From IMG/VR virus record IMGVR_UViG_3300044712_001463: a DNA stretch of 64,000 nucleotides. One strand, written 5' to 3'. Position 1 is the first letter of the stretch; each line of letters begins with the position of its first letter. The position numbers were made by a program, and so were the translations under genes. Under the pieces are notes generated by a model. It saw nothing but the letters and a program-made list of their open reading frames with translations, ran no database searches and was not told where the DNA came from. Origin of the DNA: a virus (lineage: Duplodnaviria; Heunggongvirae; Uroviricota; Caudoviricetes). This document shows positions 3,844 to 55,329 of the stretch, piece after piece.

Positions 3844-3878
3844 AAAAATACTAAAAATTTAGTATAGTAGTAACAACC

Positions 3879-7964: not shown

Positions 7965-7998
7965 AGAGGGGATTCTTCGGAATCCCCTTATTTTTTTT
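7965..7998 (+). terminator. rho-independent terminator
   Basis: gaggggattc-ttcg-gaatccccttatttttttt. Confidence 0.75.
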
Positions 7999-11564: not shown

Positions 11565-11565
11565 T

Positions 11566-17581: not shown

Positions 17582-17583
17582 GA

Positions 17584-19034: not shown

Positions 19035-19038
19035 TCAA

Positions 19039-24794: not shown

Positions 24795-25267
24795 TCTCCT
24801 ACCGGACCTCAAACCTATTCGATTCTATTAAGAAACAAATACCCTTTAGGTCAGGGGACATACTCAAACCTATTTCACCTACCAAAATGGATTGGAACGG
24901 ATGGGAGATAAATCCCGATAGGCCATACAATGTTTCGCATATAACGGAGAATGGATTAGTAGTCGTTCAAAATGGATTCTTATCTAGTGATTTCGCCAAA
25001 CTAACACTAGAAGATGCAAAATTGCTATTTGAAAAAATAGGTGAGTCCAACCTCTATGGTTTCAAGGTAGGGGATATGGTCTGTCCTGAATATGTTCGCG
25101 GGGTAAGGCAAACTGAAAAGACTTGTTATTACCTAAATAAAATACTTGTCAACGCAGCAGGTAAAGCATTTGGATTCTTTACTAAAGATAATAATAATGA
25201 TGCTAAGAAATTTGATTCATATTGTGAATTATCTAAATTGCAAAAACAAGGCGGTTCTGTCCAGTAA
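24791..25267 (+). CDS. leader family protein, subtype B
   Basis: MISYRTSNLFDSIKKQ; YGFKVGDMV. Confidence 0.7.
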   Translation: MISYRTSNLFDSIKKQIPFRSGDILKPISPTKMDWNGWEINPDRPYNVSHITENGLVVVQNGFLSSDFAKLTLEDAKLLFEKIGESNLYGFKVGDMVCPEYVRGVRQTEKTCYYLNKILVNAAGKAFGFFTKDNNNDAKKFDSYCELSKLQKQGGSVQ

Positions 25268-25584
25268 TCGGGTTTTACCCCGTAGGCCAAAGCATTAATT
25301 TTGTCCGGCGATTGGAAACATTGTAAAACTTTATAAGAAACTAGTAGTGTGTGGTAAAGTAATAAAAGCCCATAGGCCAAAGGATAAATTGAGTAATTGT
25401 TGCAAATGGTCTATTGTGGTTTATTGTGGGTAGGAATAGGATAGATTGGATAAGAGGGGAGGTGTAGTGTCATTCACCTCTCTTAATAAGATCTACAAAT
25501 CACCACCCTACCCTGGTTTGTTAAGTCATATTAAGTTTTGTCTATCGTTAATTAATAAATCTTAATAAGAAGGATTTATACAAC

Positions 25585-26118
25585 ATGATAAGTTATAGGA
25601 ATGCAAATATATTTGAATCATTAAAGAAGCAGATGTATCCTCTTGTTGGAGGCATATATATTTGTTTAGAGGATAAGCCCTGGCCTAACCCACGGAACAG
25701 GCATTTGGCTATTATAGAAGGTGAGAGATATATCTTTTCACATGTAAGAGATGGCAAGATGGTTCTAGTGCAAAAGATGCAGGGTGGGAATGTTTTCGAG
25801 GTAGGTCCAGGGGATATAAAAAAATACTTTAGTTTTCTTGACCAGGGTGATTTAAGAGGTTTCAAAGTAGGAGACATGGTTGTAAGGGGAGACGTTGAGG
25901 TTCTTGAAGTTCCAGGTAGAATGCATGAGGCCGGCAGGTCAATTCCTAGATATAAAATAATGGCATTCGGATTAGGAATAAGACTAGCACCCAAGGCATA
26001 TTGTTTAAGAGAGGGCTCTGGAACTGAAGAGGGAATTGGACTAGAATATTTGAAATGGAGTTTCGCCCATTGCGACTCAGAACTTCTTTTAGAACAGATA
26101 AAGAAGGCTGACAAATGA
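25585..26118 (+). CDS. leader family protein, subtype B (PWPNP); first gene after internal non-coding gap
   Basis: MISYRNANIFESLKKQ. Confidence 0.7.
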   Translation: MISYRNANIFESLKKQMYPLVGGIYICLEDKPWPNPRNRHLAIIEGERYIFSHVRDGKMVLVQKMQGGNVFEVGPGDIKKYFSFLDQGDLRGFKVGDMVVRGDVEVLEVPGRMHEAGRSIPRYKIMAFGLGIRLAPKAYCLREGSGTEEGIGLEYLKWSFAHCDSELLLEQIKKADK

Positions 26119-26591
26119 TCTCTTACAGAGCAAATCTATTCGAATCTATTAATAAGATAAATGCGCCTAGGCCCGGGGTTGTTTATGAAGGTATTGTGAA
26201 TAAGGATTGGCCTAACCCGAGGCACAATGATATTGGGATTACAGAAGGGGAGCAATATATTTTCTCTCATATGAGAAATGGCAAGATGGTTCTTGTTAGA
26301 AAAATGGCTGGTTCTTGGATTTTTGAAGTAAGTCCTAACGAGATAAATAAATACTTTAAACCCATAGGCCAAGCAAACTTACAGGGGTATGAAATAGGAG
26401 ATAAGATATATAGTGAAATGTATGGCAATGGAACCATAACAGGGTTCGGCCTAGCGGATATTGAAAGAATAAAAGCATATATAATTAGAGAAGGGATTGT
26501 TGAGGATGAGGATGACAAATGGGATTTTATATCTGGTAACGGTCACGATGATCCTTTATTGAGCAGAGTAGAAAAAGGATGGAAGAAATGA
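26115..26591 (+). CDS. leader family protein, subtype B
   Basis: MISYRANLFESINKI; KPIGQANLQGYEIGDKI. Confidence 0.7.
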   Translation: MISYRANLFESINKINAPRPGVVYEGIVNKDWPNPRHNDIGITEGEQYIFSHMRNGKMVLVRKMAGSWIFEVSPNEINKYFKPIGQANLQGYEIGDKIYSEMYGNGTITGFGLADIERIKAYIIREGIVEDEDDKWDFISGNGHDDPLLSRVEKGWKK

Positions 26592-27073
26592 TTTCTTATC
26601 GTAAGTCCAACTTATTTGAATCCTTAAACAAAATGAACATCTGTAGTCCAGGTGATATTTTTGAAGGCATTGCAAATATGCCCTGGCCTCATAGCGAAAA
26701 GCAGGTATGGATATGGAAGGGAACTCGTTATATATTTTCACATATGTATAATGGTAAGATGGTTCTCATACAGAAGAACGAAGGTAGCAGGATTTTCTTT
26801 GTATCACCTAGCGAATTAAATAAATATTTTAAGCGCATAGGCCATGCTGATTTTCAAGGACTTAAAGTAGGGGATTATGTTTATACTGAGAGCAGGGAGA
26901 CTGGGACTTTCAGGCATTATATAATAACTGCCCTGGGCCTATACGATGATGACAGTCCGATGCCCTGGTGTAGGTGGATACATGATTCAGTTCCATTTAA
27001 TCCAGAGAGGCCAACAAACAGAGCAGAAAGATTTTACTTAAAAGAGATTATTAAGAATCCACATCAGGGGTAG
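26588..27073 (+). CDS. leader family protein, subtype B
   Basis: Start at ATG 26588; MISYRKSNLFESLNKM. Confidence 0.7.
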   Translation: MISYRKSNLFESLNKMNICSPGDIFEGIANMPWPHSEKQVWIWKGTRYIFSHMYNGKMVLIQKNEGSRIFFVSPSELNKYFKRIGHADFQGLKVGDYVYTESRETGTFRHYIITALGLYDDDSPMPWCRWIHDSVPFNPERPTNRAERFYLKEIIKNPHQG

Positions 27074-27078
27074 GCCAA

Positions 27079-27618
27079 ATGATTTCTTATCGTGCAAATT
27101 TATTTGAATCCTTGAACAAGGTTGTCAAAAAGATTACTGAGTCTGGGCAATACTGCGTAGGCCCAGACGGAATTGTTTATTTTGTTAATGCTGGCGAAAA
27201 CATAGGGGACTTTTATTTAATGTCCGAAAAGGGTAATGTTACTAAGACCACGAACCTTGATGAGATTAATAAGAATTATCAATATACGACACCTAGGCCA
27301 GGGTGGGTAACTAAGAAAGTCAAAGACGGAACTCGATATGCTCATTATCCTCATAGGGCTGGGGATAAATATGAGGCAAGAGGTGCTGACGGAAGCTATA
27401 GGCTTATATGGATTTCATGCGGTTGCTATATAACTTCATTTAAGAATTTTTCTAAGATGATGTTAAGTTATAGAGCTGCAACTATGCCAAATCCGGAAGC
27501 AAGGAAGCCAGAAAGAAAACCTAGTTCGATAACGCACGAAGATGTTCTCATCAAAGATATATTGGATGATAATAATCAATGGGTTAATAATGATACAAGA
27601 GGCCCAGGGGGATACTGA
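27079..27618 (+). CDS. leader family protein
   Basis: MISYRANLFESLNKV; internal MMLSYRAA echo. Confidence 0.65.
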   Translation: MISYRANLFESLNKVVKKITESGQYCVGPDGIVYFVNAGENIGDFYLMSEKGNVTKTTNLDEINKNYQYTTPRPGWVTKKVKDGTRYAHYPHRAGDKYEARGADGSYRLIWISCGCYITSFKNFSKMMLSYRAATMPNPEARKPERKPSSITHEDVLIKDILDDNNQWVNNDTRGPGGY

Positions 27619-27621
27619 TAA

Positions 27622-28059
27622 ATGATTTCTTATCGTGCAAATTTATTTGAATCCTTAAAGAAGCAAATCAACCCTGGGCCTCCTAGGGTTGGTGATTTCT
27701 TTTGGGATAGCGAGAACCAGGTATTTATTCTCAAGACATGTGACCAGAACAATTCAAAATATGTTTTCGGACAGGCTTATAAAGATAGGGAAGATGGTGA
27801 GTTCCTATATAAATTCAGAGATAATGCTACTATCACTGGCAGACGTTTGGGCAATGTTCTAGATATGAATCCTAAAGCGGCTGAGGCTTTTAAAAGGAAT
27901 GAGATAAATTGCATAGAAACATTCAAGTTCATACAAAACCTTTGTGAATGGCTTGACAAGGCAAATATAACCGAGCGTGGTATCATAGAATATGTAAGAG
28001 CCTATAAGTTCGGCTGGATTAAAATAACTGCTGGTGGTGAAGCAGGAGTAGAACTATGA
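27622..28059 (+). CDS. leader family protein, subtype C (GDFFWDSEN)
   Basis: MISYRANLFESLKKQ. Confidence 0.7.
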   Translation: MISYRANLFESLKKQINPGPPRVGDFFWDSENQVFILKTCDQNNSKYVFGQAYKDREDGEFLYKFRDNATITGRRLGNVLDMNPKAAEAFKRNEINCIETFKFIQNLCEWLDKANITERGIIEYVRAYKFGWIKITAGGEAGVEL

Positions 28060-28502
28060 TTTCTTACCGGGCAAACTTATTTGAATCCTTGAACAGGGTG
28101 GTGGCTAAACAGTATCAGCCTGGGGATGTATTTAAGGAAAGTGGTATTGCTGATAGTTTTTCCATCTTAATGATTGAACGGGTAGGTAGAGAAAGAGGTG
28201 GACAAACTCTTTATTGGCTTCATAGAAAAGGTCTTCCCGATCAGAACATAAAGCTTACCCAGAAACAATTAGATGACAAGGCTAGTTTTAATTATATTAG
28301 GCACTTGGACTTGGGTGACTGGAAGGTAGGAGACTTTTGTAAATTAAACGAATCCTTCCAGGGAGATCAAGAAACATATAAAATAGAAACAATATTCCTA
28401 GATAACTTCGATATGGTCAGGGTAGGCTTAAATAAAAACTGGAGTTATCATAATGTTGCTGAAAAAACCGTGCTGCTTGTCCATATAAAAAAGCCTTCCT
28501 AG
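28056..28502 (+). CDS. leader family protein (last array member)
   Basis: MISYRANLFESLNRV; ATGA coupling. Confidence 0.7.
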   Translation: MISYRANLFESLNRVVAKQYQPGDVFKESGIADSFSILMIERVGRERGGQTLYWLHRKGLPDQNIKLTQKQLDDKASFNYIRHLDLGDWKVGDFCKLNESFQGDQETYKIETIFLDNFDMVRVGLNKNWSYHNVAEKTVLLVHIKKPS

Positions 28503-37814: not shown

Positions 37815-38006
37815 ATGACCAAACAGGAGATGGAGAAGGAACTTCAGGAACAAGCAAGGCTCCTCGGCATCAGCGGGAGTCGGGAAGCGGCTTTGATGGC
37901 AAAGAACGACGAACTCAGAAAGGCTCTTAGGCAGATTGCCAAATTGGATGCGAAGGTTCACCCGACATCCGTGGCAATCCTCATTGCTGAAGAGGCGCTT
38001 AAGTAG
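37815..38006 (+). CDS. small coiled-coil protein
   Basis: RBS aaggag; terminator follows. Confidence 0.5.
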   Translation: MTKQEMEKELQEQARLLGISGSREAALMAKNDELRKALRQIAKLDAKVHPTSVAILIAEEALK

Positions 38007-38027
38007 AATACTTCCCTCCCTGTGAAC

Positions 38028-38069
38028 AAAGAGAGCCCTGGGCGTAATAGCCTGGGGCTCTTTTGTTTG
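38028..38069 (+). terminator. rho-independent terminator
   Basis: agagccctgggcgtaatagcctggggctcttttgtttg. Confidence 0.65.
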
Positions 38070-38113
38070 TACTGGCGGAGGTCAGGACATTCTGCTGTGG
38101 CGCCTTCAATAGA

Positions 38114-38133
38114 ACTACTTATATATAAGTAGG
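38114..38133. repeat. inter-cassette palindrome aCTACTTA-TATA-TAAGTAGG
   Basis: Flank agaactactt identical to copy at 53464. Confidence 0.75.
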
Positions 38134-38166
38134 ATTAAGATCCTAGCTCTCCGGGAAGCTTTCTTC

Positions 38167-38194
38167 TTGACAAGCCAGGCTATTTGTGTATAAT
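38167..38194 (+). promoter_or_regulatory. cassette promoter
   Basis: consensus. Confidence 0.7.
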
Positions 38195-38212
38195 ATACCT
38201 AGGAGGTTAGCC

Positions 38213-38968
38213 ATGGAACTCAACATCTTCCATACATCGGACAATCACGGCAAGATGAAGAAGGGTGTGTCTTCCAAGTGGGAGGCTAAGCCCATTGACC
38301 TTGCTCTCCTTTCCGGGGATCACTGTCCGAACTATGTCCGGAACTTCTCCTTTGACCAGCACTACCTGCGCCATGTGAATCGCGATGAGGAGAAGATCCT
38401 TCAGCGCTCCTGGAACAAGAAGGTTCTGAAGTCATGGTTAGCCAGGAAGGGATGGCTTGATAAGACGGTCATCTGTCCGGGAAATCATGACTTCGCTGCC
38501 TTCCATGAGTTCCCAAACACTGTTGCTACTGGATCCAAGACCATCACCCTGGATATCAAAGGCGTGCAGGTGAAGATTGGCATCCTGGTGGGGACTAACA
38601 TCATCCCCACAGGAGGCATAGCCGGTGGCTGGTATGAGGAAGTTGATGAGTCGGAGTTCGAGCGTCGGATCTACGCGCTTGATTCCGATATCGATATCCT
38701 GCTGAGTCATCGCCCTCCATATGGCATCCTGGATATGGGATACGGCGAGCACATCGGTAGCCAACATCTGACTCGTGCCATCTTCGGCGGTGTCTTTGGA
38801 TCTACAGCACCGCACTTCAGCAAGTTGAAGTTGCACTGTTTTGGGCACGCACATGAATCCGGTGCCCAGAGGTTGCATCACAGCTTTGCCGGAGATGACC
38901 GGAGAAAGGGATCCATACTCTTCAGTAACGCTGCGTGCAGTTATGAGTTCCTGAGCATCGAAGTGTAG
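38213..38968 (+). CDS. calcineurin-like metallophosphoesterase
   Basis: FHTSDNHG, GDHCPNY, GNHDFAAF, GHAHE motifs; start ATG 38213 with aggagg SD. Confidence 0.7.
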   Translation: MELNIFHTSDNHGKMKKGVSSKWEAKPIDLALLSGDHCPNYVRNFSFDQHYLRHVNRDEEKILQRSWNKKVLKSWLARKGWLDKTVICPGNHDFAAFHEFPNTVATGSKTITLDIKGVQVKIGILVGTNIIPTGGIAGGWYEEVDESEFERRIYALDSDIDILLSHRPPYGILDMGYGEHIGSQHLTRAIFGGVFGSTAPHFSKLKLHCFGHAHESGAQRLHHSFAGDDRRKGSILFSNAACSYEFLSIEV

Positions 38969-38990
38969 TTCAATAAAATCAAGGCAATCC

Positions 38991-39027
38991 AAGAAGACCA
39001 TCTCCTAACCGAGGTGGTCTTCTTACG
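38991..39027 (+). terminator. terminator-like hairpin (weak U-tract)
   Basis: aagaagaccatctcctaaccgaggtggtcttctt. Confidence 0.4.
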
Positions 39028-39057
39028 TACGTGAACGATCATTTATGGGTCCTAATT

Positions 39058-39083
39058 AAACCTACTTAAATATAAGTAGGTTT
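39058..39083. repeat. inter-cassette palindrome AAACCTACTTA-AATA-TAAGTAGGTTT
   Basis: 11 bp perfect arms. Confidence 0.8.
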
Positions 39084-39135
39084 GATGTCCGGGCAGCCCA
39101 GTAACCCAGAACTTCTGGGGAGATGAGAGTTCTCC

Positions 39136-39163
39136 TTGACAAGTTCCAGAGAATATGTATAAT
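39136..39163 (+). promoter_or_regulatory. cassette promoter
   Basis: consensus. Confidence 0.7.
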
Positions 39164-39191
39164 AGGGTTACACTCACTCAAGAGGTTTATC

Positions 39192-39746
39192 ATGAAGGCT
39201 AGAGTTATGGTTACTCTTAACTGCAATCGGAAGTGTGATGGATGTTGCAATAAAGGTCCAGTCTTTAATTTACACCAAGTTGCCGAGAATCTTGATGAGA
39301 TTCTGAAGGCAGATGAAATTATGATTACTGGTGGTGAACCCATGCTTTTACCGATTAAGGTTTTTGAATTCATCAAGATGTTGCGCTATCATAGGCAATA
39401 CAAGGGAAAGATTTATCTCTACTCTGCCTACTATCCTTCAACGGATAGAGAAAAAGAACACTTCTGGTATTGTGCAGACCTTTGCGATGGTGTGCATTTT
39501 ACCTTGCACGCTGAGGCTACGGACAGGGATGTGGCGGACCTTAAAAGGCTGTCAGAAGATTTAGGGGAGTGGGATAAAAAGCACCGCTCTTTCCGTCTTG
39601 CCATTGACAAGCGCCTCTATGAAAAGTTTGATTTCTCCAACATTGATTTCACCTTTTGGGATGTGGTCAGAAAGTTAGTTTGGATGACTGACTGCCCTCT
39701 GCCTAAAGATGAGAAACTATTCCTTTATGACTTGACAAGTCTTTAA
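39192..39746 (+). CDS. small radical-SAM domain protein (NrdG- or QueE-like)
   Basis: CNRKCDGC = CxxxCxxC; ITGGEPML glycine-rich SAM motif; start ATG 39192. Confidence 0.6.
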   Translation: MKARVMVTLNCNRKCDGCCNKGPVFNLHQVAENLDEILKADEIMITGGEPMLLPIKVFEFIKMLRYHRQYKGKIYLYSAYYPSTDREKEHFWYCADLCDGVHFTLHAEATDRDVADLKRLSEDLGEWDKKHRSFRLAIDKRLYEKFDFSNIDFTFWDVVRKLVWMTDCPLPKDEKLFLYDLTSL

Positions 39747-39759
39747 GAATATGTATAAT
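39732..39759 (+). promoter_or_regulatory. cassette promoter (unit near-identical to 54441)
   Basis: consensus; overlaps upstream stop. Confidence 0.7.
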
Positions 39760-39788
39760 AAAGTTACACTCAAACAAAGGAGGCTGTC

Positions 39789-40160
39789 ATGCGCGGTGCG
39801 GTCGTAGTCACCATCAAGCAGGAAGGCATGGTTGCAGAGAACGAGGTCTTCCTAGTCGGTCATCGCGGTCGTGGCTCGAAGGCGACCTGGAACAAGGCTA
39901 TGGGATACTTCATCCACAGCATCGAGTTCGCCTTCAAGAACGCTGACGACCTTTCTGGTCTTCGGGAGTTTCGGAAGCAGTTGAAGGCGAAGACCGAAAT
40001 GACTTCCGAGTTCGAGGAGTCAGAGGACGGTGGATGGCACAAGGTCGTCAAGCCTCTCTACGCTAGCGAGGATGAGTGGTTCGAGGACATCTTTGGGGAT
40101 GGCTTGTATGAACTCCCCAACGGTGAGGAAATCACCATCGCTTGGGCTAGCGTCAAGTAA
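39789..40160 (+). CDS. hypothetical protein
   Basis: Promoter 39732; RBS aaggagg. Confidence 0.5.
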   Translation: MRGAVVVTIKQEGMVAENEVFLVGHRGRGSKATWNKAMGYFIHSIEFAFKNADDLSGLREFRKQLKAKTEMTSEFEESEDGGWHKVVKPLYASEDEWFEDIFGDGLYELPNGEEITIAWASVK

Positions 40161-40179
40161 CCCTATTCAGGAGTCTGTC

Positions 40180-40689
40180 ATGGGCTGGATCAAGATGGGT
40201 GAGTTTGAGGTTGCTTCCAAGCGAGTCATGATCAGTGACCCCTGCTATGAGTCAGGGCAATCCCTCACGGCACTCAACGGAACCTACGATGCCTACATCT
40301 TCAAGAACAAGGAAGGTCGGGTCATGAAGTTGAAGGCGGTCAGGAAGGGATCCAAGGTCGTGGGTGGAATGCAGGAGGCTAGGATTGCAGGCGTGGACTC
40401 AGGTCAGATGAGCATCACGGACTACCTGCAATACCGCGAGAGCAACCCCAATGACCTGCGCCTGGTCACTTCGCTCTGGCAGGACACGCTCAAGGATCCT
40501 GATGGTGGTCAGTTCTACGCCGTGTGTTGCTCCCTGACCTGTGGCGATGACAACGGTCAGACCCAGCAGGGAGGCGTCTTCGCTAGTGGGTGCGTTTCGC
40601 AGTCAGGCTATGGGGATGGGGGATATCCCATTTTCTATGGTGAGGATGAGAACGGCGATTCGGTGGCTTTTGAGGTCAGGTTCAAATAA
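40180..40689 (+). CDS. hypothetical Gly/Cys-rich protein
   Basis: Start ATG 40180 with caggag SD. Confidence 0.45.
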   Translation: MGWIKMGEFEVASKRVMISDPCYESGQSLTALNGTYDAYIFKNKEGRVMKLKAVRKGSKVVGGMQEARIAGVDSGQMSITDYLQYRESNPNDLRLVTSLWQDTLKDPDGGQFYAVCCSLTCGDDNGQTQQGGVFASGCVSQSGYGDGGYPIFYGEDENGDSVAFEVRFK

Positions 40690-40692
40690 AGC

Positions 40693-40720
40693 TTGACAAG
40701 TTTCCAAAAGTAAGTATAAT
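40693..40720 (+). promoter_or_regulatory. cassette promoter
   Basis: consensus. Confidence 0.7.
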
Positions 40721-40784
40721 CATACTTACAAGAGGCAAGGGTTCCCCTCTCCACAAGTGAATCCACTCTCTCTAGGAGGTCGTC

Positions 40785-41027
40785 ATGTCCGAGAACACCC
40801 CGCAGGTCGAGCAGGCTCCCCGCAAGGTCGGTCGTCCCGTCACCATGACCAAGGAGGAGGTCGAGAAGATCCTCTCCCTGGGCGCCGAGCGCAACATCTC
40901 GTGTCAGAAGGCGTGCGCCATGGTCCACAAGAGCTACAGCACCTTCATCAGCGCGGCTCACCGCTACGGCGTGGCTCTCCCCGCCCGTGGTCGCCGGTCG
41001 AGCAAGAAGGATGAGGTCGCCGCCTAA
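40785..41027 (+). CDS. small putative DNA-binding protein, paralog of 33616
   Basis: Promoter 40693; shared motifs with 33616. Confidence 0.55.
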   Translation: MSENTPQVEQAPRKVGRPVTMTKEEVEKILSLGAERNISCQKACAMVHKSYSTFISAAHRYGVALPARGRRSSKKDEVAA

Positions 41028-41054
41028 CAACCGGTCACAGCCGAGAAACACCCA

Positions 41055-41090
41055 AAGGGAGGCAGAGAAATCTGCCTCTCTTTATTTTAT
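41055..41090 (+). terminator. rho-independent terminator
   Basis: gggaggcagagaaatctgcctctctttatttt. Confidence 0.6.
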
Positions 41091-41111
41091 AAATAAGTAA
41101 TTAAATAGGGC

Positions 41112-41139
41112 TTGACAAGTCCTAGGGAATAGATATAAT
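41112..41139 (+). promoter_or_regulatory. cassette promoter
   Basis: consensus. Confidence 0.7.
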
Positions 41140-41157
41140 AGAATCAGGAGGAAAGTC

Positions 41158-41982
41158 ATGAGTCTTTTTGACGCGCTCAACAAACATCTGAAACCCACGT
41201 TCGAGGTCGGAACCTTCTTTGTCTGGGAGGGCTCCGTATTCTTTATTTGCGGCAAACAGAATACGCAGTATTTGATTGAGTTGGTTGACAAGGGAGAAAA
41301 CAGAAGGGTTCATATCTGCAATTGTGAATCTTCGAATGGATTTGCCTGGTATATCAACGAAGGCACACATGAAAGCATAGACATTGTAAAGAAAGACGGA
41401 ACCGAGATTCGTAAAACTATTAAAGAGATAAAAGCAGATAACACCAAGACATATCCGCATTCCCTTCCAGCATTTAAGATTGGCGAAAAAGCAATGCGTG
41501 GTCGTGCAGGAAAGAAAACTATTGTAATAGTAAAATACAATCCTGCTGATGACTCTTTCTATTATGGTGATGGAGTTGAGAGCACTTTCGGCAGTCATAA
41601 CGACAGATTTAATTATGGGCGTAACGAATACAAGGAATCTGAATACTCGAAGATAGAGGAACCAAAGCCCGAGGCTCCAGCCGCCGTAACTCCAATGCGT
41701 GTAATATCTCCCATGGCTGTGACCCCCATTTCGCATAGGGAAACTCCTGACCATGGTGCAGGAGCAGGTTACAGGCGTGACGCCATATCAGGACTTGGTC
41801 GTTACGAAATGACTGAGAATGGTCATAACAAGTTCTGGTCTATCCGCCAACTTCCTTCAGGAAACTACGAAGCCACCTGGGGAAGGATTGGAACGGCTGG
41901 TCAGTCTATTATTTATTCAGCCGTAGAAGCAGCAAAGAAAATCAGAGAGAAAATAGCCAAAGGCTATGTTTTCGTGGAGTAA
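41158..41982 (+). CDS. MSLFDALNKH-leader protein with C-terminal WGR domain
   Basis: Leader variant; PAFKIGEKA; C-term FWSIRQL...YEATWGRIGTAGQ...AKKIREKIAKGY = WGR. Confidence 0.6.
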   Translation: MSLFDALNKHLKPTFEVGTFFVWEGSVFFICGKQNTQYLIELVDKGENRRVHICNCESSNGFAWYINEGTHESIDIVKKDGTEIRKTIKEIKADNTKTYPHSLPAFKIGEKAMRGRAGKKTIVIVKYNPADDSFYYGDGVESTFGSHNDRFNYGRNEYKESEYSKIEEPKPEAPAAVTPMRVISPMAVTPISHRETPDHGAGAGYRRDAISGLGRYEMTENGHNKFWSIRQLPSGNYEATWGRIGTAGQSIIYSAVEAAKKIREKIAKGYVFVE

Positions 41983-42478
41983 TGCCGTGAGCCTATTTGA
42001 TGCTATTAACAAACAACTTAAGCCTGTCATTGAAGCAGGGAACATGTTTTCCATAGATGGAAACGTGTTTCTTATTTGCTATATGCCAGAAAACGATACC
42101 GTTTTATTGCAGATAGTCGAAAGGAAAAGTCAAGACCTTGCTATGTATAGGCACAATCCTAATCCTGGAGACGCATGGTATAGCGGCGATTGTTCGAATA
42201 GAATGTATTGGTTTAGGATTGATGGCAAACAGTATTTCTATAAGGACGTAAAGCAACAGGCAAAACCAGTCTTTAATTATCCGAAATCCCCTTTCAAGAT
42301 TGGGGAAAGGGTAAGGGTTAAAAATCCTAAAAAGGTTAACAGCAATCGTGAGGAATTTGTTATTGTATCCTGCCACTTCGAAAATGGTAAATACTACTAT
42401 TCAGCGGGCGACTTTAACACCCATGTCGCCAACTATCCCCATCACTATAATTCCCAAGATGAGTTAGAAAAGGCTTGA
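41966..42478 (+). CDS. MSLFDAINKQ-leader protein (GC-rich family homologue); probable GTG start at 41987
   Basis: VSLFDAINKQLKP; PFKIGERVRV SH3-like motif. Confidence 0.5.
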   Translation: MFSWSNAVSLFDAINKQLKPVIEAGNMFSIDGNVFLICYMPENDTVLLQIVERKSQDLAMYRHNPNPGDAWYSGDCSNRMYWFRIDGKQYFYKDVKQQAKPVFNYPKSPFKIGERVRVKNPKKVNSNREEFVIVSCHFENGKYYYSAGDFNTHVANYPHHYNSQDELEKA

Positions 42479-42502
42479 CAAGTTCCAGTTATTCGGTATA
42501 AT
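42475..42502 (+). promoter_or_regulatory. cassette promoter
   Basis: consensus; -35 overlaps upstream TGA. Confidence 0.7.
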
Positions 42503-42544
42503 AGGATACATGAGAAGTTTCAAACCCATTCTTATGAGGCGGTC

Positions 42545-42934
42545 ATGGACGAGAAGGAGATGGTGAAGTTCCTGGATCAGCGCATCGTGGAGATCAAGGC
42601 GCTCACGGACGACAGCCCCCAGGGTGTCAACAAGTTCCTTGAGTTGGCTCAGGCGGTCGGCACGGAGCACATCCTGCGGGCAACCTTCTTCAAGGACAAG
42701 GAAGTGGTCATGAAGGCGGCGGAGTATCTCTGCGAGGTCGCTGACATGATGAACCGCTTCGAACTCGATGCTCGGATGCAGCAGGTCGGTCCGGGCGTCC
42801 TCGCCCTCGCGGTTGGCAAGAAGGGTGCCTTCGATGCCCAGCCCAAGGAGCCCGTCAAGGCAACGGACGAGGCGCTCAGGGCTCTCCTCGCCCAGGCGCT
42901 CAAGGAGAACGAGAAGCCCGACACGGCTGCTTAA
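42545..42934 (+). CDS. hypothetical protein
   Basis: Promoter 42475; leader cttatgaggcggtcATG. Confidence 0.5.
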   Translation: MDEKEMVKFLDQRIVEIKALTDDSPQGVNKFLELAQAVGTEHILRATFFKDKEVVMKAAEYLCEVADMMNRFELDARMQQVGPGVLALAVGKKGAFDAQPKEPVKATDEALRALLAQALKENEKPDTAA

Positions 42935-42956
42935 GAACCAAATCCCAAGCGAGAAC

Positions 42957-42997
42957 GAGAAGACCCAGGTGCAACTAGCCTGGGTCTTTTTGTTTGT
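42957..42997 (+). terminator. rho-independent terminator
   Basis: agacccaggtgcaactagcctgggtctttttgtttg. Confidence 0.65.
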
Positions 42998-43036
42998 CAC
43001 GACGGAGGACTTCTGACTCAGTCGGGTACCTACTCG

Positions 43037-43056
43037 CCTACTTAAAAATAAGTAGG
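43037..43056. repeat. inter-cassette palindrome CCTACTTA-AAAA-TAAGTAGG
   Basis: Lies inside a shadow ORF; partial extra half-site upstream (acctactcg). Confidence 0.75.
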
Positions 43057-43090
43057 TCTGAAGTACCCCAGCCCTGTAGATCAAAAGAGC

Positions 43091-43118
43091 TTGACAAGTA
43101 TCCAGGTTTATATATAAT
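43091..43118 (+). promoter_or_regulatory. cassette promoter
   Basis: consensus. Confidence 0.7.
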
Positions 43119-43137
43119 AGAGTCATGGAGGAAAGCC

Positions 43138-43659
43138 ATGAGTCTCTTTGATGCCATAGCCAAACATACCAAGAAAGAGGTTGATTGGAATAAGGCTGGC
43201 GAGTTTTTCGAACTCGATGGCGTTATCTTTTCAATCAATCATATTTCTGACATTGGCAGTCACAACCAATCTGCGTATGTAGGCGTTCATTCCAATCCCC
43301 TTAAGAAAAAGGTCATGGTTGGGAGGTTCAGGTCTGGAGATTTTTCAGGACAACATGATTTGACTAGGATTACGGCAGGCGAAGGTAATTGCCATATGTA
43401 TAAAAGCGCATCGGATGGACCCAACGCCATTCAGGTTGATGGGAAAGTCTTTGTTATTGGCAGAGACATGTTCACTTCCTGCACTAAAAGGTTCCCTCTG
43501 TTTGGGCTCTTCGGCAAGACAATGAGGATCAAGGGAGGCGGCTACGGCGACTTTAAGGTTCAGACTGCCTGGTTGATGCCTGATGGCACTTGGCTGTGTT
43601 CAGCGGGACAGCATCCTAGGCGCTCACATAAAGTCAGCGATCTTGAAGTTATAGATTGA
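43138..43659 (+). CDS. MSLFDAIAKH-leader protein
   Basis: Promoter 43091; SD ggagga; start at ATG 43138. Confidence 0.55.
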   Translation: MSLFDAIAKHTKKEVDWNKAGEFFELDGVIFSINHISDIGSHNQSAYVGVHSNPLKKKVMVGRFRSGDFSGQHDLTRITAGEGNCHMYKSASDGPNAIQVDGKVFVIGRDMFTSCTKRFPLFGLFGKTMRIKGGGYGDFKVQTAWLMPDGTWLCSAGQHPRRSHKVSDLEVID

Positions 43660-43683
43660 CAAGTAAAGGGATTTAGATATAAT
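43656..43683 (+). promoter_or_regulatory. cassette promoter (ATTGACA)
   Basis: -35 overlaps upstream stop. Confidence 0.65.
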
Positions 43684-43701
43684 AGAGTCATGGAGGAAGT
43701 C

Positions 43702-44211
43702 ATGAGTCTTTTTGATGCACTCGCCAAACAACTTGTTTTGCCCTTCTCTACGAAAGAGAGTGAAGGGCGTATTCTGACCATCCCTGGAACGAAAATCAAG
43801 TTCCTTTTTCGTGTTTATGACCATAGCGATAACACCTGCTATCTTCAAATTTACAAGATGCCCGAAGATGTGAAATATATTCATGGCTTTATTAAGGGTA
43901 GTGATGACAATGTGGTTTGCAAGTGGGATGAAGAAGGGGAATGCCAATGGGTTAATCTTGCTCAAACAGACCTTGCTATTGTTTACAAGAACAAGAAGGT
44001 TAAAAAACTCTCGATTCAGGATGGCAGAGAAGGGTTTATTGTTGACCTGCAAGACCCGAAACCCAAGTTTTGGCACCAGAAGGTCAAGTTTGTCAATTCA
44101 AAGAAGCGGGCTTTTAAGATTGAAGAATATCGGATTAATGACGGAGTGTTTGAATACAGGGACTTCGATGGAAACTGGCAACAGGAAGAAAACCTCAAGG
44201 CGGCGGAGTAG
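43702..44211 (+). CDS. MSLFDALAKQ-leader protein
   Basis: Promoter 43656; SD ggaggaag; start ATG 43702. Confidence 0.55.
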   Translation: MSLFDALAKQLVLPFSTKESEGRILTIPGTKIKFLFRVYDHSDNTCYLQIYKMPEDVKYIHGFIKGSDDNVVCKWDEEGECQWVNLAQTDLAIVYKNKKVKKLSIQDGREGFIVDLQDPKPKFWHQKVKFVNSKKRAFKIEEYRINDGVFEYRDFDGNWQQEENLKAAE

Positions 44212-44214
44212 GTC

Positions 44215-44490
44215 ATGGGTAAGTTAAAGGTTGGCAAGCCCATCATCATTCAGCGTCCCATCTACGCAATCCTGCCGCCTAATGCCACACCTGAACAGTC
44301 TAGGCGATACCAGGAGGCTCTTGCCGCCCTTCGCAAGAGATACCCGAAGCCCTTTGAACCTAGCCTGAATCAAAAGTATCATCCTGATGCCATCGAAAAT
44401 ACACATGATACATTCGAGGAATATGTAAGCGCCTTAACTAAAGCCGCAATCAAAGAAGGAAAGATTCTATTCCCGTATCTTTGCTCTTGA
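44215..44490 (+). CDS. hypothetical protein
   Basis: SD ggagtagg; 91 aa. Confidence 0.45.
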   Translation: MGKLKVGKPIIIQRPIYAILPPNATPEQSRRYQEALAALRKRYPKPFEPSLNQKYHPDAIENTHDTFEEYVSALTKAAIKEGKILFPYLCS

Positions 44491-44514
44491 CAAGTTTCCT
44501 GAAATAGATATAAT
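44487..44514 (+). promoter_or_regulatory. cassette promoter
   Basis: consensus. Confidence 0.7.
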
Positions 44515-44545
44515 AACATCATCACCCATTCATAGGAGGTCGGTC

Positions 44546-44773
44546 ATGAAGCATTTGACACCGCCAGAGATGGTGGCGCGGAAGATGGTGCTGGACCAGA
44601 TCAAGGAGTTGACCGCCACGGTCGCCTCCAAGCCCGAGAACGAGAAGTTCATGATCGCCCTGCACTACGCCGCCTTCATCGGGTTCGTCCGCGAACAGCA
44701 GGACAAGGAAGCGGAGCAGGTCGGCATCGCCCTCTACAAGGAACTCGGCGTCGAGATCCCCGCCGAACTCTGA
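44546..44773 (+). CDS. hypothetical protein
   Basis: Promoter 44487; leader cataggaggtcggtcATG. Confidence 0.5.
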   Translation: MKHLTPPEMVARKMVLDQIKELTATVASKPENEKFMIALHYAAFIGFVREQQDKEAEQVGIALYKELGVEIPAEL

Positions 44774-44801
44774 GATCCTCCACAACTCATGAAAGACCCT
44801 T

Positions 44802-44835
44802 GAAGCCCTCGGAGAAATCCGGGGGCTTTCTGTTG
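44802..44835 (+). terminator. rho-independent terminator (duplicate of 33883)
   Basis: gaagccctcggagaaatccgggggctttctgttg. Confidence 0.55.
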
Positions 44836-44880
44836 TACTCTTCAGAACTCTCCGGCAACTACTTGCGGCGCCTGGATAGT

Positions 44881-44900
44881 TCTACTTATATATAAGTAGG
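44881..44900. repeat. inter-cassette palindrome tCTACTTA-TATA-TAAGTAGG
   Basis: family member. Confidence 0.75.
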
Positions 44901-44944
44901 TCTTAATATGATCGTACGATGAGTGCATCTCCGGCAAAACACTG

Positions 44945-44973
44945 CTTTAAAAACCCCTATATTTTGGTATAAT
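44945..44973 (+). promoter_or_regulatory. weaker promoter (TATAAT -10 at 44968, poor -35)
   Basis: ggTATAATAaaatag. Confidence 0.35.
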
Positions 44974-45004
44974 AAAATAGACCATAAACTCAAAGGAGCC
45001 CCAT

Positions 45005-45544
45005 ATGTTTAGAGATATCGCATTCTTCACGAGCATGTCATCGCACGATAAGAACATCCAGAAGGTAATCGATGACAGCTTCATAAACTACCTTACGAAG
45101 AGAGTTGTTGATGTGAAGAACTCGAAGGAGATCTTCCTCATCTTGTCCATGATTGAGATGCAGAACAAATACACGCGTGCGATGGAGTTGCTCAGGTCTA
45201 TCGAACTCGCAGTGCCGATGCTAGCAACTGTTCTCATCATGGCAGCAGGTGGCAAAAGTCTTCCGTTCTGGTTGTTCTTGCCTCTAGTGCTTGCCATCTT
45301 CTGGTCGTTCGATTTCTTTATCATGCGCCCAATCAAAATCCAGGTCATCCAGGGCTACCAGTTCAGGTTGATGTGCGATCTCACGCAGCAAGAAGACGCA
45401 GTCATCTGCCGGGAAGACTCAACTGATGACAGCAAGATTATAGTCAATAAAGACCCTGAGAAATCAGTGTATCTCCAGGAGTTCATTTCCAATGGTGAGA
45501 AGCTCCTCGAACAGTTCCGGCAAGACCTACTTAAAGGTAAGTAG
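45005..45544 (+). CDS. membrane protein (2 TM)
   Basis: RBS aaaggagcc; weaker promoter (-10 at 44968). Confidence 0.5.
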   Translation: MFRDIAFFTSMSSHDKNIQKVIDDSFINYLTKRVVDVKNSKEIFLILSMIEMQNKYTRAMELLRSIELAVPMLATVLIMAAGGKSLPFWLFLPLVLAIFWSFDFFIMRPIKIQVIQGYQFRLMCDLTQQEDAVICREDSTDDSKIIVNKDPEKSVYLQEFISNGEKLLEQFRQDLLKGK

Positions 45545-45653
45545 GCAGTCAATCTGCATTCACGGGCGCACACTGAGCAATGTCTGCAAAGCTTGCTTTG
45601 ACTCAGTGTGGCGTTCGGGGGAAGTTGCTGGATTCAAATATGATTTCACCAAG

Positions 45654-45830
45654 ATGGGCATCCCCAAAACATTCATGTGGGGTATGCGGTTGGTGTACGA
45701 AGAGAGTTCGGGTATAACCTGGACGATTAATACTGAGCGTTTGGATTCAGCCCCGGCGGATGTCGGGACTAATCATTTAGATGTCATCCTGGAAATCATT
45801 AAACTCTACTTGACAAGTTTGCGAGAATAG
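45654..45830 (+). CDS. possible small ORF (start unclear; GTG 45606 alternative)
   Basis: No SD; low support. Confidence 0.25.
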   Translation: MGIPKTFMWGMRLVYEESSGITWTINTERLDSAPADVGTNHLDVILEIIKLYLTSLRE

Positions 45831-45837
45831 ATATAAT
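45810..45837 (+). promoter_or_regulatory. cassette promoter
   Basis: consensus. Confidence 0.7.
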
Positions 45838-45860
45838 AGGAACTGTGAGATGCAGCAGGT

Positions 45861-45954
45861 GGTAGGGAGAAACGCTAGCGGTTATCACGGTCGAAGAACA
45901 TTCTCCGCCGACGGGAGACAAGGATAACCAAGACCTAGATTCCCTACCACCATC
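45861..45954 (+). promoter_or_regulatory. structured 5' leader: 11 bp inverted repeat GGTGGTAGGGA ... TCCCTACCACC enclosing ~72 nt, upstream of Cys-rich protein gene
   Basis: Between promoter 45810 and ATG 45974; no ORF. Confidence 0.4.
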
Positions 45955-45973
45955 CAAAACATTGAGGTTTCAA

Positions 45974-46261
45974 ATGTATAACTGTTGCAAGTGTGGGCGC
46001 AAGGGCATCACCTACGATGAAGATGTTCTTCGTGAAAACTGTCATGACTGTGGGGCAAAGGTCGGTCGGTGCCATAAGGCGGGATGCGATGTTGAGCGTT
46101 GTTCGGTCTGCAAGGGTCAGCGCCTCGGATGCGACTGTAAGGGTCATTCCCGCAAAGCCTCCAAGTGGACAGGTTTTTGGCCAGGAACCAAGGAAGCCGC
46201 CGCCAAGAAAATCTGTCTGAACTGCCTGACCATTGATGAAATGACAGGAGCCCAATCATGA
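45974..46261 (+). CDS. Cys-rich putative zinc-binding protein
   Basis: 14 Cys in CxxC-like pairs; structured 5' leader. Confidence 0.5.
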   Translation: MYNCCKCGRKGITYDEDVLRENCHDCGAKVGRCHKAGCDVERCSVCKGQRLGCDCKGHSRKASKWTGFWPGTKEAAAKKICLNCLTIDEMTGAQS

Positions 46262-46626
46262 AATCCCTTCGCATCGGTCTGACCATCCTGAATTGGCTCA
46301 TCATCATTGGCATTGTCGCCCTGCACAGGCATTACAATGTCCCTGCTAGCATTGGCTTTTTTAGCATCATGGCTGGCATGGCTATTCTTGGTTTAGGGAT
46401 GGTCATTGATGATTGTAAAAAGCAGGAGAGGAATGACAAGAAACAGTTATACATTAACGCCTACCATGCGGCAAAGGAACGGGTTCAGAAGGAAATGGCT
46501 GAATTTCCGAGACCTACTACTCCAGAAAAGTGTGAATGGGCGCAGGTTTCACATATTCATGATACTAATCTTGTCACACTCCTTCACAAGAAGGCGTGTG
46601 AACTTCAAGACAAGAAGGAGGATTAG
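46258..46626 (+). CDS. membrane protein
   Basis: ATGA coupling; 2 TM helices. Confidence 0.5.
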   Translation: MKSLRIGLTILNWLIIIGIVALHRHYNVPASIGFFSIMAGMAILGLGMVIDDCKKQERNDKKQLYINAYHAAKERVQKEMAEFPRPTTPEKCEWAQVSHIHDTNLVTLLHKKACELQDKKED

Positions 46627-55253: not shown

Positions 55254-55329
55254 TAATTAAAAATCTTTTAAAAGGTAAGAAAATTGAGTATAGTAGAAAG
55301 CGAGAACTTCTAACTTTCGGGGGCTACAG

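Follow-up and report, generated by a model that had tools for sequence, protein, structure and literature searches.

Leader-Bearing Genes in the GC-Rich Block

The window, the whole 64-kb (64,000-nt) stretch of DNA under analysis, probably originates from an uncultivated jumbo phage; the nearest relatives of its TilS-like protein are in PA5oct-type phages and in a 635-kb phage. Four plus-strand genes were borne out as beginning with a common leader motif, with starts at 41158, 41987 (GTG), 43138 and 43702, and the same starts were picked in a separate gene call on a Logan contig. The genes and their principal features are as follows.

41158–41982, plus strand: gene 1, 274 amino acids, starting MSLFDALNKH
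41161–41187, plus strand: gene 1 leader core, S-L-F-D-A-L-N-K-H
41815–41967, plus strand: WGR domain (PF05406), gene 1 residues 220–270, Pfam profile match
41987–42478, plus strand: gene 2, 163 amino acids, GTG start, MSLFDAINKQ
41990–42016, plus strand: gene 2 leader core, S-L-F-D-A-I-N-K-Q
42545–42934, plus strand: unrelated, non-family gene between genes 2 and 3, with its own promoter at 42475–42502
43138–43659, plus strand: gene 3, 173 amino acids, MSLFDAIAKH, with core S-L-F-D-A-I-A-K-H at 43141–43167
43702–44211, plus strand: gene 4, 169 amino acids, MSLFDALAKQ, with core S-L-F-D-A-L-A-K-Q at 43705–43731

The initial annotation gave the shared start as MSLFDA(L/I)NK(H/Q). The first part, MSLFDA(L/I), is present in all four genes, but the N-K pair occurs only in genes 1 and 2 and is A-K in genes 3 and 4. 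Similarly, the FKIGE motif ascribed to the entire set is found in genes 1 and 2 only, the corresponding segment of gene 4 being AFKIEE and gene 3 having nothing comparable. The gene 1 product comprises, in order, the leader helix, a Pro-containing tether, a beta-rich body with AFKIGE, a P/A-rich linker and the C-terminal WGR domain, which was matched at 25.2 bits against a gathering cut-off of 22 (E = 1.8e-5). Gene 2, which contains PFKIGE, is paralogous to gene 1 over the first 165 residues of the latter (BLASTP without the leader, E = 5e-7). Similarity of the gene 3 body to other family members was sought and none was detectable. The GC contents of genes 1 to 4 are 43.9, 39.2, 46.0 and 42.0%, respectively, and not 52% as claimed previously; ~50% is the mean of the block that surrounds them. 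The intervening non-family gene has a GC content of 61.5% and a GC3 of 0.85.

Promoters and Predicted Expression of the Four Genes

The signals that flank the genes are listed below.

41054–41083, plus strand: terminator-like hairpin with T-run that ends the upstream transcription unit
41112–41139, plus strand: promoter of genes 1 and 2, TTGACA-N16-TATAAT, 12/12 matches
41146–41151, plus strand: gene 1 Shine-Dalgarno sequence AGGAGG, read directly from the sequence
41976–41979, plus strand: gene 2 Shine-Dalgarno sequence GGAG, within the 3′ end of gene 1
43038–43055, no strand assigned: palindrome CTACTTA-N4-TAAGTAG, upstream of the gene 3 promoter
43091–43118, plus strand: gene 3 promoter, 12/12 matches
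43656–43683, plus strand: gene 4 promoter, 12/12 matches, overlapping the gene 3 stop codon

Each gene had been credited with its own promoter and Shine-Dalgarno sequence. The latter is present in all four cases, and a perfect TTGACA-N16-TATAAT promoter lies ahead of genes 1, 3 and 4, but not of gene 2. No promoter was found between genes 1 and 2; the GTG codon of gene 2 lies 4 nt past the gene 1 stop codon and its GGAG is inside gene 1, and the two genes therefore are co-transcribed. Genes 1, 3 and 4 are near-identical from the promoter through the start codon (TATAATAGAGTCATGGAGGAAAGYCATGAGTCT). The palindrome at 43038–43055 is one of 15 copies across the GC-rich block, which also houses tRNA genes and accessory genes. 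Early expression of the four genes is suggested by the sigma-70 promoters combined with this neighborhood. By sequence, the promoters of genes 1, 3 and 4 are early-like and of host type, and expression of the four genes probably falls early in infection.

The Leader Core Recurs in 41 Modules

The leader is not confined to the four genes. The six-frame translation of the window was examined with the regular expression [NS][LI]F[ED][SA][LI]x[KR], which yielded 41 matches, all on the plus strand and all in frame, of which 37 are in an AT-rich array and four in the GC-rich genes. Block-wise shuffles produced a mean of 0.03 matches and a maximum of 1, compared to the 41 observed. The array and the gene at its head are as follows.

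8088–8618, plus strand: HEAT/LRV-repeat protein, overlapping the first array gene by ATGA
8615–28502, plus strand: AT-rich array, 32 family genes equivalent to 37 modules

The array genes are joined mainly by ATGA start/stop overlaps, and four non-family genes (at 9479, 9838, 10266 and 12267) are scattered among them. The gene for the HEAT/LRV-repeat protein is the first past a terminator at 7966–7989, and its product is, speculatively, a candidate receptor of the helix. The leader of array modules conforms to (MISYR)(x)NLF(E/D)S(L/I)xK(Q/H) and consists of two parts, a MISYR segment and a helix core, the former of which is missing from the four GC-rich genes. Six of the motif copies are internal: five lie where two modules are fused in a single gene and one is in g11488. 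The five fused genes retain the helix core at the module junction without MISYR, which indicates from sequence that the helix functions away from the N-terminus.

Selection on the Leader Peptide

Codon usage in the two sets of genes differs, as had been proposed, with GC3 of 0.42–0.48 for the four genes versus 0.27 for the array. Nucleotide similarity to the array likewise was absent in blastn comparisons, with the sole exception of the gene 2 core (25 nt, 88%, E = 0.015), a match to array leaders that is largely forced by the amino acids in common. Values for the core in the array are dN = 0.15 and dS = 0.94; synonymous sites are near saturation and the residues nonetheless are kept. The conserved Ala codons of the four genes all differ (GCG, GCT, GCC and GCA), and array Ser residues are encoded by TCN as well as AGY codons. 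The dN and dS values and the synonymous codons, scrambled inside the array as well as between it and the four genes, uphold the earlier proposal that the motif is a functional peptide acting at the protein level instead of a recombination scar. The codon data indicate that the leader peptide is maintained by selection on the protein.

It might be argued instead that the conservation operates on the nucleic acid, as a translation-initiation region, a recombination site or the outcome of gene conversion among copies. The near-identical promoter-to-start stretch of genes 1, 3 and 4 and the ATGA coupling junction common to the array genes would accord with this view. However, the promoter and 5′ untranslated consensus is generic and is carried by ~30 unrelated cassettes, the coding part has fixed amino acids with synonymous positions free to vary, and the peptide is kept in internal copies that do not have start-codon context. 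This explanation is already largely refuted by the codon data and is scarcely credible.

Module Architecture and Predicted Fold

The helix core, (N/S)-L-F-(E/D)-(S/A)-(L/I)-x-K-(Q/H)-hydrophobic, reads as an N-capped amphipathic alpha-helix in which N/S supplies the cap, an i/i+4 salt bridge may link E/D (position 3) to K (position 7), and one face is lined by L, F, L/I and the next hydrophobic residue. A tether of 6–16 residues follows, with Pro in 33 of the 41 modules, and then a first strand with the pattern G-(D)-hydrophobic-hydrophobic in 40 of 41. All three elements, the core, the 6–16 residue tether and the G-x-hydrophobic-hydrophobic strand, are present in each of the four GC-rich genes. 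The tether is 6–8 residues long in 28 of 40 modules; tethers of this length would still let the helix pack on its own barrel.

The bodies are far less uniform than the leader. With the leader removed, BLASTP separated the bodies into clusters of 14, 7, 4, 3 and 2 members and 11 singletons, and hhalign probabilities between body clusters were ≤69% and mostly <10%. As the bodies are unrelated in sequence without the leader, the helix therefore is the single constant element. Of the eight best-conserved columns of subfamily A, six fall in the leader. Genes 1 and 2 align to subfamilies B and D via a P-x-x-Y-x-FKIG hairpin; in comparisons with the array family without the leader, the hhalign probability was <10%.

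AlphaFold models predict an SH3/Tudor-like small beta-barrel for subfamily A, with five strands and superposable on SH3-type domains. The AlphaFold2 model of g15044 has a mean pLDDT of 86.9 with body blocks mostly >90, whereas residues 1–20 have values of 52–65 and residues 7–15 are predicted to be helical. The elements are arranged likewise in the model of g41987 (pLDDT 63), in which a helix at residues 3–10 gives way to strands. In these two models the helix region has pLDDT values of 52–69 and adjoins a Pro-rich tether, as expected of a flexible terminus. The g15044 pattern is, as modeled, the usual picture of a tethered helix unpacked from its own domain, although the low values for the helix could alternatively stem from a shallow alignment of 15 paralogs. 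Foldseek searches of the PDB and BFVD gave no significant match, and the SH3/Tudor-like bodies correspond to no Pfam family.

The helix might, alternatively, be integral to the fold, either packing on its own barrel or mediating homo-oligomerization, in which case it would be conserved only for the sake of folding or assembly and would have no signal or docking function directed at a shared partner. Folds in which an SH3-like barrel comes after a helix are known (Sm/Hfq). In 40 of 41 modules the homologous unit runs past the helix into the G-(D)-hydrophobic-hydrophobic strand, and the tethers mostly are 6–8 residues, from which common descent of the entire N-terminal 25–30 residues, and not a transplantable tag, would follow. 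We regard this possibility as real but distinctly the less likely one.

MISYR Segments on Putative Metallopeptidases

The MISYR segment also occurs without the helix core at the start of two other genes.

4468–4971, plus strand: MISYRE-start gene with LHEMTHL (HExxH)
12267–12725, plus strand: MISYRE-start gene inside the array with IHEKTHL (HExxH)

The leader thus could be conceived as a recognition or processing site of these two HExxH proteins, with the family members as precursors matured by metallopeptidases. Both non-family MISYR proteins contain (L/I)HE(M/K)THL, whereas the chance occurrence of HExxH is estimated at ~0.4% per protein of this size. Moreover, both genes are in the same operons as the family, that at 12267 lies inside the array, and the product of 4468–4971 weakly matches Peptidase_M91, with an E-value of 0.005 that is under the Pfam cut-off. 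However, neither protein has a significant family assignment, the two share nothing more at the BLASTP level, no cleavage motif is definable and the four GC-rich genes are distant from both candidate peptidases. A maturation role is very unlikely.

The Leader as a Proposed Capsid-Targeting Peptide

The initial annotation likened the leader to the capsid targeting sequence (CTS) of T4 internal proteins and proposed cleavage after LFE. More broadly, the leader would be a capsid or prohead-core targeting peptide, cleaved or not after LF(E/D), that loads an ejected arsenal into the virion. The overall logic fits this proposal, in that many small, diversified proteins begin with one short peptide that stays constant; the family proteins are mildly basic (median pI 8.6), and a jumbo-phage context is probable. 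In addition, LFE agrees with the (L/I)xE rule, and MISYR of the array resembles the MKTFK start of T4 IPI and the MKTYQ start of IPIII. The likeness to MKT(Y/F)(Q/K)EF nevertheless is loose (T4 IPI is MKTFKEF).

The analogy is unsupported on several grounds. It rests on MISYRANLFE (M1, Y4 and E10), and the four genes do not have MISYRA at all, so that a cut after LFD would take off only five residues (MSLFD); the T4 CTS is an extreme N-terminal propeptide of 10–19 residues. Its targeting is determined by residues 4 and 7, both before the cut, and conservation does not extend into the mature part, whereas S/A, L/I, K and Q/H beyond the proposed cut in the family are as conserved as L and F before it, for five residues further. 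At the would-be P1 position, Asp is found in every one of the GC-rich genes and in nine of the 37 array copies, with Glu in the other 28. In T4, Asp at P1 blocks processing, but not targeting (PMC9026906). The motif also is found inside proteins, in six of its 41 copies. Genes 1, 3 and 4 each have a consensus sigma-70 promoter, gene 2 is co-transcribed with gene 1, and the neighbors of all four are tRNA and accessory genes. The recommended search for a prohead protease was negative in the 64-kb window and ~3.5 kb beyond, within which capsid and scaffold genes also were not found. As judged from the window and this flank, a targeting peptide of this type is unlikely, though packaging as such may occur; a shared partner-docking helix is a more probable reading of the leader than a T4-style capsid-packaging tag.

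Resemblance to Sliding Clamp-Interacting Peptides

A specific version of docking would have the helix as a T4/RB69-type PIP-like clamp-interacting peptide that tethers the barrels to the phage or host clamp on DNA. The clamp-binding C-terminus of RB69 gp43 is KKASLFDMFDF, against which MSLFDAL and ANLFDSL of the window may be set; the T4 gp43 terminus is EKASLDFLFG. The pocket of the gp45 clamp receives both the C-termini of gp43 and the LDFLF peptide of T4 ligase, the latter as an amphipathic alpha-helix (PMC6212786), and these interactions are a structurally solved example of such a docking handle. The leader pattern (A/M)-(N/S)-L-F-(D/E)-x-hydrophobic, its location on a flexible tether, its use at a terminus or internally in the manner of clamp motifs, and the WGR domain of gene 1, a type that is usually nucleic acid-associated, are consistent with this version. 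However, the likeness comprises four identical residues (S-L-F-D) picked out from among many known short motifs, and bacterial acyl-CoA-ligase-like proteins, by chance, start with a near-identical MSLFDAIAKH. Furthermore, the conserved K and Q/H past the motif are without counterpart in clamp peptides, there is no clamp gene within the window, and 41 clamp binders in one phage would be without known precedent. Clamp binding is improbable.

Discussion

The four GC-rich genes are best viewed, tentatively and with a little less than an even chance of being correct, as diverged members of one phage-specific family of 41 modules in the window for which the helix is a common docking handle. A fast-evolving SH3/Tudor-type beta-barrel body would sit behind the helix and tether, and the hydrophobic face of the helix would plug into a pocket of one shared partner, thereby bringing many different barrel modules to one place. 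The GC-rich members would be made from host-type promoters, probably early in infection, and the array members from long, translationally coupled operons. The analysis demonstrates the motif, its statistics, selection on the protein, the common helix-tether-strand unit and the predicted fold of subfamily A; docking itself and the choice of partner are what we infer. Candidate partners include the HEAT-repeat protein encoded at the array head, a pocket of the sliding-clamp type and a prohead core.

In an extended form of the docking proposal, which may be summarized as ‘one handle, many heads’ and is possible but rather doubtful, the ~20-kb array and the four early cassettes would supply ~40 proteins with one docking helix and differing SH3/Tudor-like barrels to a single hub, as a host-takeover or counter-defense arsenal. 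The hub might be the clamp, the HEAT-repeat receptor or another machine. If correct, this would constitute a combinatorial arsenal without homologue in the public data searched.

A peptide that is near-constant over 41 modules whose bodies have diverged past profile detection would mark a strongly selected interaction surface. It offers an experimental entry to the partner and to the purpose of the array, which occupies approximately one-third of the 64-kb window. Searches of protein and contig collections revealed no homologue of the leader family, which so may represent uncharted biology. Were the partner the capsid core, the leader would be a second, independent packaging tag of use in protein delivery; were it a clamp or other hub, it would reveal a new way in which phages multiplex many effectors via one port.

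Each of the known systems that the family recalls differs from it. The T4 CTS, like the leader of the family, is a short N-terminal stretch that stays constant across small, rapidly evolving phage proteins with no other relationship; both have an L-x-E tripeptide, and MISYR in the array shows M-x-(S/T)-(Y/F)-(basic or polar), as do MKTFK and MKTYQ. However, the T4 set comprises 3–4 proteins compared to 41 modules here, no gp21-like protease or scaffold lies in the stretch covered, and there is no sequence homology. The gp45-interacting peptides similarly are short, amphipathic and acidic/hydrophobic on a flexible tether, but they sit on replication enzymes, whereas the peptide in the window is N-terminal, has a K-(Q/H) extension and is borne by 41 SH3-like modules; the likeness may be due to chance. 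Among SH3/Tudor/KOW barrels, no named system is known to combine tandem modules with a helix tethered at the N-terminus. Finally, T4-type phages reportedly possess early-promoter cassettes termed PeSL. As in the GC-rich block, many small genes are each placed behind a near-identical sigma-70 early promoter in these cassettes, often with a conserved hairpin nearby, but the sequences differ from the promoters and hairpin described here. Unlike in PeSL, the CTACTTA-N4-TAAGTAG hairpin of the window precedes the -35 box by 50–75 nt and is present at just one of the three promoters of the four genes.

The four GC-rich genes and the leader core

The leader family occupies the following positions in the window.

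41158-41982, + strand: gene 1, N-terminus MSLFDALNKH, with a WGR domain at the C-terminus
41987-42478, + strand: gene 2, GTG start, N-terminus MSLFDAINKQ
43138-43659, + strand: gene 3, N-terminus MSLFDAIAKH
43702-44211, + strand: gene 4, N-terminus MSLFDALAKQ
8615-28502, + strand: AT-rich array, 32 family genes with 37 modules

An independent gene call agrees with the starts assigned to genes 1-4 in the initial annotation. The regular expression [NS][LI]F[ED][SA][LI]x[KR] matched the six-frame translation 41 times, always in frame on the + strand (37 matches in the array plus genes 1-4), compared to a mean of 0.03 matches in shuffled sequence. Other parts of the original description required correction. 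The GC content of the four genes, given as 52%, is 39-46%. Asn-Lys was attributed to all four but is present in two, the other two carrying Ala-Lys, and the FKIGE motif is confined to genes 1 and 2. Individual promoters of the consensus sigma-70 type precede genes 1, 3 and 4, whereas gene 2 has none and is coupled to gene 1, with its GTG start 4 nt past the gene 1 stop codon and GGAG inside the end of gene 1. The claimed difference in codon usage held (GC3 of 0.42-0.48 in the four genes vs 0.27 in the array), as did the lack of nucleotide similarity to the array with the exception of one 25-nt match in the gene 2 leader. Overall the observation was partly confirmed.

Selection on the leader peptide

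The nine-codon core in the array has a mean pairwise dN of 0.15 and dS of 0.94. Leucine is specified there by CTA or TTA, serine by TCT, TCC, TCA, TCG or AGT, and glutamate by GAA or GAG. Among genes 1-4 the conserved alanine is spelled by all four codons and Leu3 by CTT, CTA and CTC, and both serine and both arginine codon families are in use in the MISYR prefix that precedes the core in array genes. The likeness of genes 1, 3 and 4 between promoter and ATG is the generic cassette consensus, common to unrelated genes. Because dN is so low relative to dS, the codons vary and the upstream likeness is generic, the leader is selected as a peptide. The earlier proposal of a functional peptide signal kept at the protein level is thereby borne out, and a nucleic-acid-level cause of the conservation is scarcely credible. 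A recombination scar or gene conversion is ruled out by the variation at synonymous sites.

Modular organization and predicted structure

The leader comprises two separable parts, a MIS(Y/H)R(x) prefix and the core (N/S)LF(E/D)(S/A)(L/I)xK(Q/H), the latter followed by a hydrophobic residue. The prefix begins 31 array genes and two non-family genes (4468 and 12267); genes 1-4 and the five modules that lie internally in fused genes lack it. Judged from sequence, the core substitutions (N/S, E/D, S/A, L/I and Q/H) appear to be exactly those that would retain an N-cap, the acid-Lys pairing at i/i+4 and, at i, i+1, i+4 and i+8, a hydrophobic face. A tether of 6-16 residues, with proline in 33 of the 41 modules, then leads in 40 modules, genes 1-4 among these, to a G-(D)-hydrophobic-hydrophobic strand.

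Five array genes are two-module fusions (15496-16362, 16359-17222, 17584-18558, 21814-22479 and 22476-23387). Their junctions read ...KK(A/T/V)-ANLF(E/D)S..., which implies that the downstream gene's stop codon and MISYR were lost and the helix core kept. In the gene at 11488-12270 the leader (ISYREANLFESINK) lies ~55 residues into the ORF behind a Lys/Arg-rich N-terminus, or ~30 residues in if the start is MYFEIK; the end of the gene for a 432-aa Glu/Lys-rich protein (10266-11564) runs into this ORF.

When the leader was removed, BLASTP left 11 of the 41 modules as singletons, genes 3 and 4 included; the others formed clusters of 14, 7, 4 and 3 and a pair made up of genes 1 and 2 (body match E 5e-7). 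Profile-profile comparison between clusters reached at most 69% probability, for array subfamilies B and D, and usually <10%. The AlphaFold2 model of array subfamily A is confident (pLDDT 86.9, pTM 0.79) and consists of two small beta-barrels with a helix at residues 7-15, and the first 20 residues have a pLDDT of just 52-65. The gene 2 model, based on an alignment that included gene 1, subfamily B and subfamily D, has a pLDDT of 63, and its elements follow in the same order (helix 3-10, strands, helix, strands). The main rival to the docking role proposed below holds that this helix just belongs to the fold or serves oligomerisation, which is possible but rather unlikely. An Sm/Hfq-like fold was dropped, as fold searches gave no such matches and the tether is long.

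The two non-family proteins that start with MISYRE (4468-4971 and, inside the array, 12267-12725) are without the helix core, and both contain (L/I)HE(M/K)THL, a HExxH metallopeptidase-like motif. Neither yielded anything significant in Pfam, NCBIfam, PADLOC or PDB sequence searches, and the 4468 protein has no homologue in a 5.8-billion-protein index. It is very doubtful that these HExxH proteins of the operon process the leader.

Searches for relatives

No relatives of the family were found in phage GenBank by megablast and tblastn, or in Pfam, PHROGs, NCBIfam and PADLOC. When queried with a profile of genes 1-4, the 5.8-billion-protein index returned those four alone. The subfamily A profile, run exhaustively with HMMER against 1.84 billion representatives, matched just the window's own proteins and one SH3-repeat outsider (E 6e-4). 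A 45-residue N-terminal profile gave no matches, even to the window's own proteins, and carries no weight either way. IMG/VR contained no relatives by family profile or degenerate DNA pattern, the latter producing 81 single matches in no clusters, which is chance level. The pattern MISYRANLF(E/D) had 0 matches in JGI metagenome contigs and GTDB genomes. For genes 1-4, subfamily A and the HExxH protein 4468, no relative was found across the protein indexes, phage GenBank, IMG/VR, JGI metagenome contigs and GTDB genomes.

Outside the window, MSLFDA matched only the N-termini of bacterial acyl-CoA-ligase-like proteins. These proteins (loci L086-L093 on metagenome contigs; 498 aa, 62% GC) start MSLFDAIAKHA and were rejected as relatives, being an unrelated enzyme family matched by chance. 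Such short identities therefore arise easily.

Genomic setting

All recognisable genes in the window are on the + strand. GC content is ~32% from roughly 4 to 28.5 kb and ~50% in a block at 29-55 kb, after which the sequence is AT-rich again. The block consists of ~30 small transcription units, each with a perfect or near-perfect promoter, and includes eight tRNA genes. The cassette consensus reads cTTGACAAGT-N13-TATAATAGAGTCAT, with a Shine-Dalgarno sequence and gtcATG after it. Promoters of the form TTGACA-N16-18-TA(T/A/G)AAT number 32 in the window (954-54468), are on the + strand in every case, and in two instances (30455 and 34495) drive tRNA genes directly. Sigma-70-like sites are not in excess in the AT-rich region (33 vs 29.9 expected in the scanned stretch, 3.3-12.4 kb). 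A weaker promoter-like element, TTTAAAA...N...AGTATAGTAG, opens both AT-rich blocks (3841-3870 and 55268-55296).

The palindrome CTACTTA-N4-TAAGTAG occurs at 15 sites vs 0.09 expected by chance (28648-54931; e.g. 28648, 33978, 39062, 43038, 49852 and 54914). Copies are confined to the GC-rich block, both borders included, usually 50-75 nt upstream of a cassette promoter -35 box. The element is reminiscent of PeSL elements and may be a regulatory or recombination hairpin. In the 5'UTRs of cassettes (that at 43123-43141 and others), the self-complementary hexamer TCATGA directly follows the -10 box and recurs spanning the start codon, so the short 5'UTR can fold into a hairpin that holds the Shine-Dalgarno sequence and ATG; that of gene 3 is TCATGG-AGGAAAG-CCATGA. 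GC3 is an extreme mosaic among adjoining cassettes (38000-46300), at 0.85-0.90 in genes 40785, 42545 and 44546, with genes 39189 and 44215 in the range of family genes 1-4, a pattern suggesting that cassettes sharing a single type of promoter differ greatly in origin or age.

The annotatable genes are all accessory: MnmA- and TilS-like tRNA modifiers, Dam methylase, Lar, HNH, Band-7, an AAA+ protein, a metallophosphatase and a radical-SAM-like protein. Nothing within the 64-kb window was recognised as a capsid, protease, scaffold or clamp gene. The TilS-like protein has its nearest counterparts in jumbo phages (PA5oct and a 635-kb uncultured phage). The AAA+ ATPase (216-950) has an FtsH/PAN-like module and probably starts upstream of the window because its match covers the C-terminal half of phrog_7485 alone. 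The sequence is known solely from one JGI contig of 94.8 kb and a Logan assembly of SRR26046407.

Candidate functions of the leader

The leader had been likened to the capsid-targeting sequence of T4, a 10-19 residue N-terminal propeptide in which residues 4 and 7 mainly direct targeting and residues 8 and 10 processing; when position 10 is Asp, targeting persists but processing is blocked, and gp21 cleaves the sequence inside the scaffolding core (PMC9026906, PMC10229621). T4 IPI begins MKTFKEF. However, the four genes lack any segment of this kind and have Asp at the would-be P1 position, strong conservation continues downstream of the would-be cut, and six family copies are internal. Furthermore, genes 1, 3 and 4 are each preceded by a consensus sigma-70 promoter, gene 2 is co-transcribed with gene 1, and the neighbors of all four are tRNA and accessory genes, which suggests that they are expressed early, before proheads exist. 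As these five features count against it, the core was not assigned to the T4 type and such a role is improbable, although the MISYR part in the array may act in a comparable manner or targeting may occur uncleaved. The initial interpretation is partly supported: the functional peptide stands, the T4-like packaging leader lacks support. Genuine and under strong selection, the leader peptide is carried by an orphan family of 41 modules.

Constant, amphipathic and tethered to binding-type barrels that differ greatly, the helix is best interpreted as a common docking handle, a reading that is plausible while somewhat short of probable. Many different barrels would thereby be brought to one shared partner. 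Candidates include a prohead core and the HEAT/LRV-repeat protein encoded at the start of the array operon. The latter (8088-8618), with repeats that are weakly NblB/CpcF-like, is encoded by the first gene past a strong terminator (7966-7989) and has an ATGA overlap with the first array gene. A membrane-targeting amphipathic helix was dropped in view of the net charge of 0 and the invariant acidic residue, and a ClpX-type N-degron in view of the internal copies and lack of resemblance.

A solved precedent for a docking handle of this kind is the clamp-binding peptide of T4 and RB69 (PMC6212786). The LDFLF segment of T4 ligase is an amphipathic helix when bound to gp45, and the C-terminus of T4 gp43 reads EKASLDFLFG (PMC6212786). 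The C-terminal end of RB69 gp43 was confirmed as KKASLFDMFDF and has S-L-F-D followed by a hydrophobic residue in common with the leader. This likeness is best regarded as a lead rather than a result, because the acyl-CoA-ligase-like proteins, matched by chance, illustrate how easily short identities arise. Clamp binding specifically is highly improbable. The bacterial beta-clamp motif QL(S/D)LF was also dropped, as the Gln is missing and the fit is limited to SLF. Compared to known phage systems in which a constant tag is borne by variable proteins, the leader family is alike in logic and a member of none.
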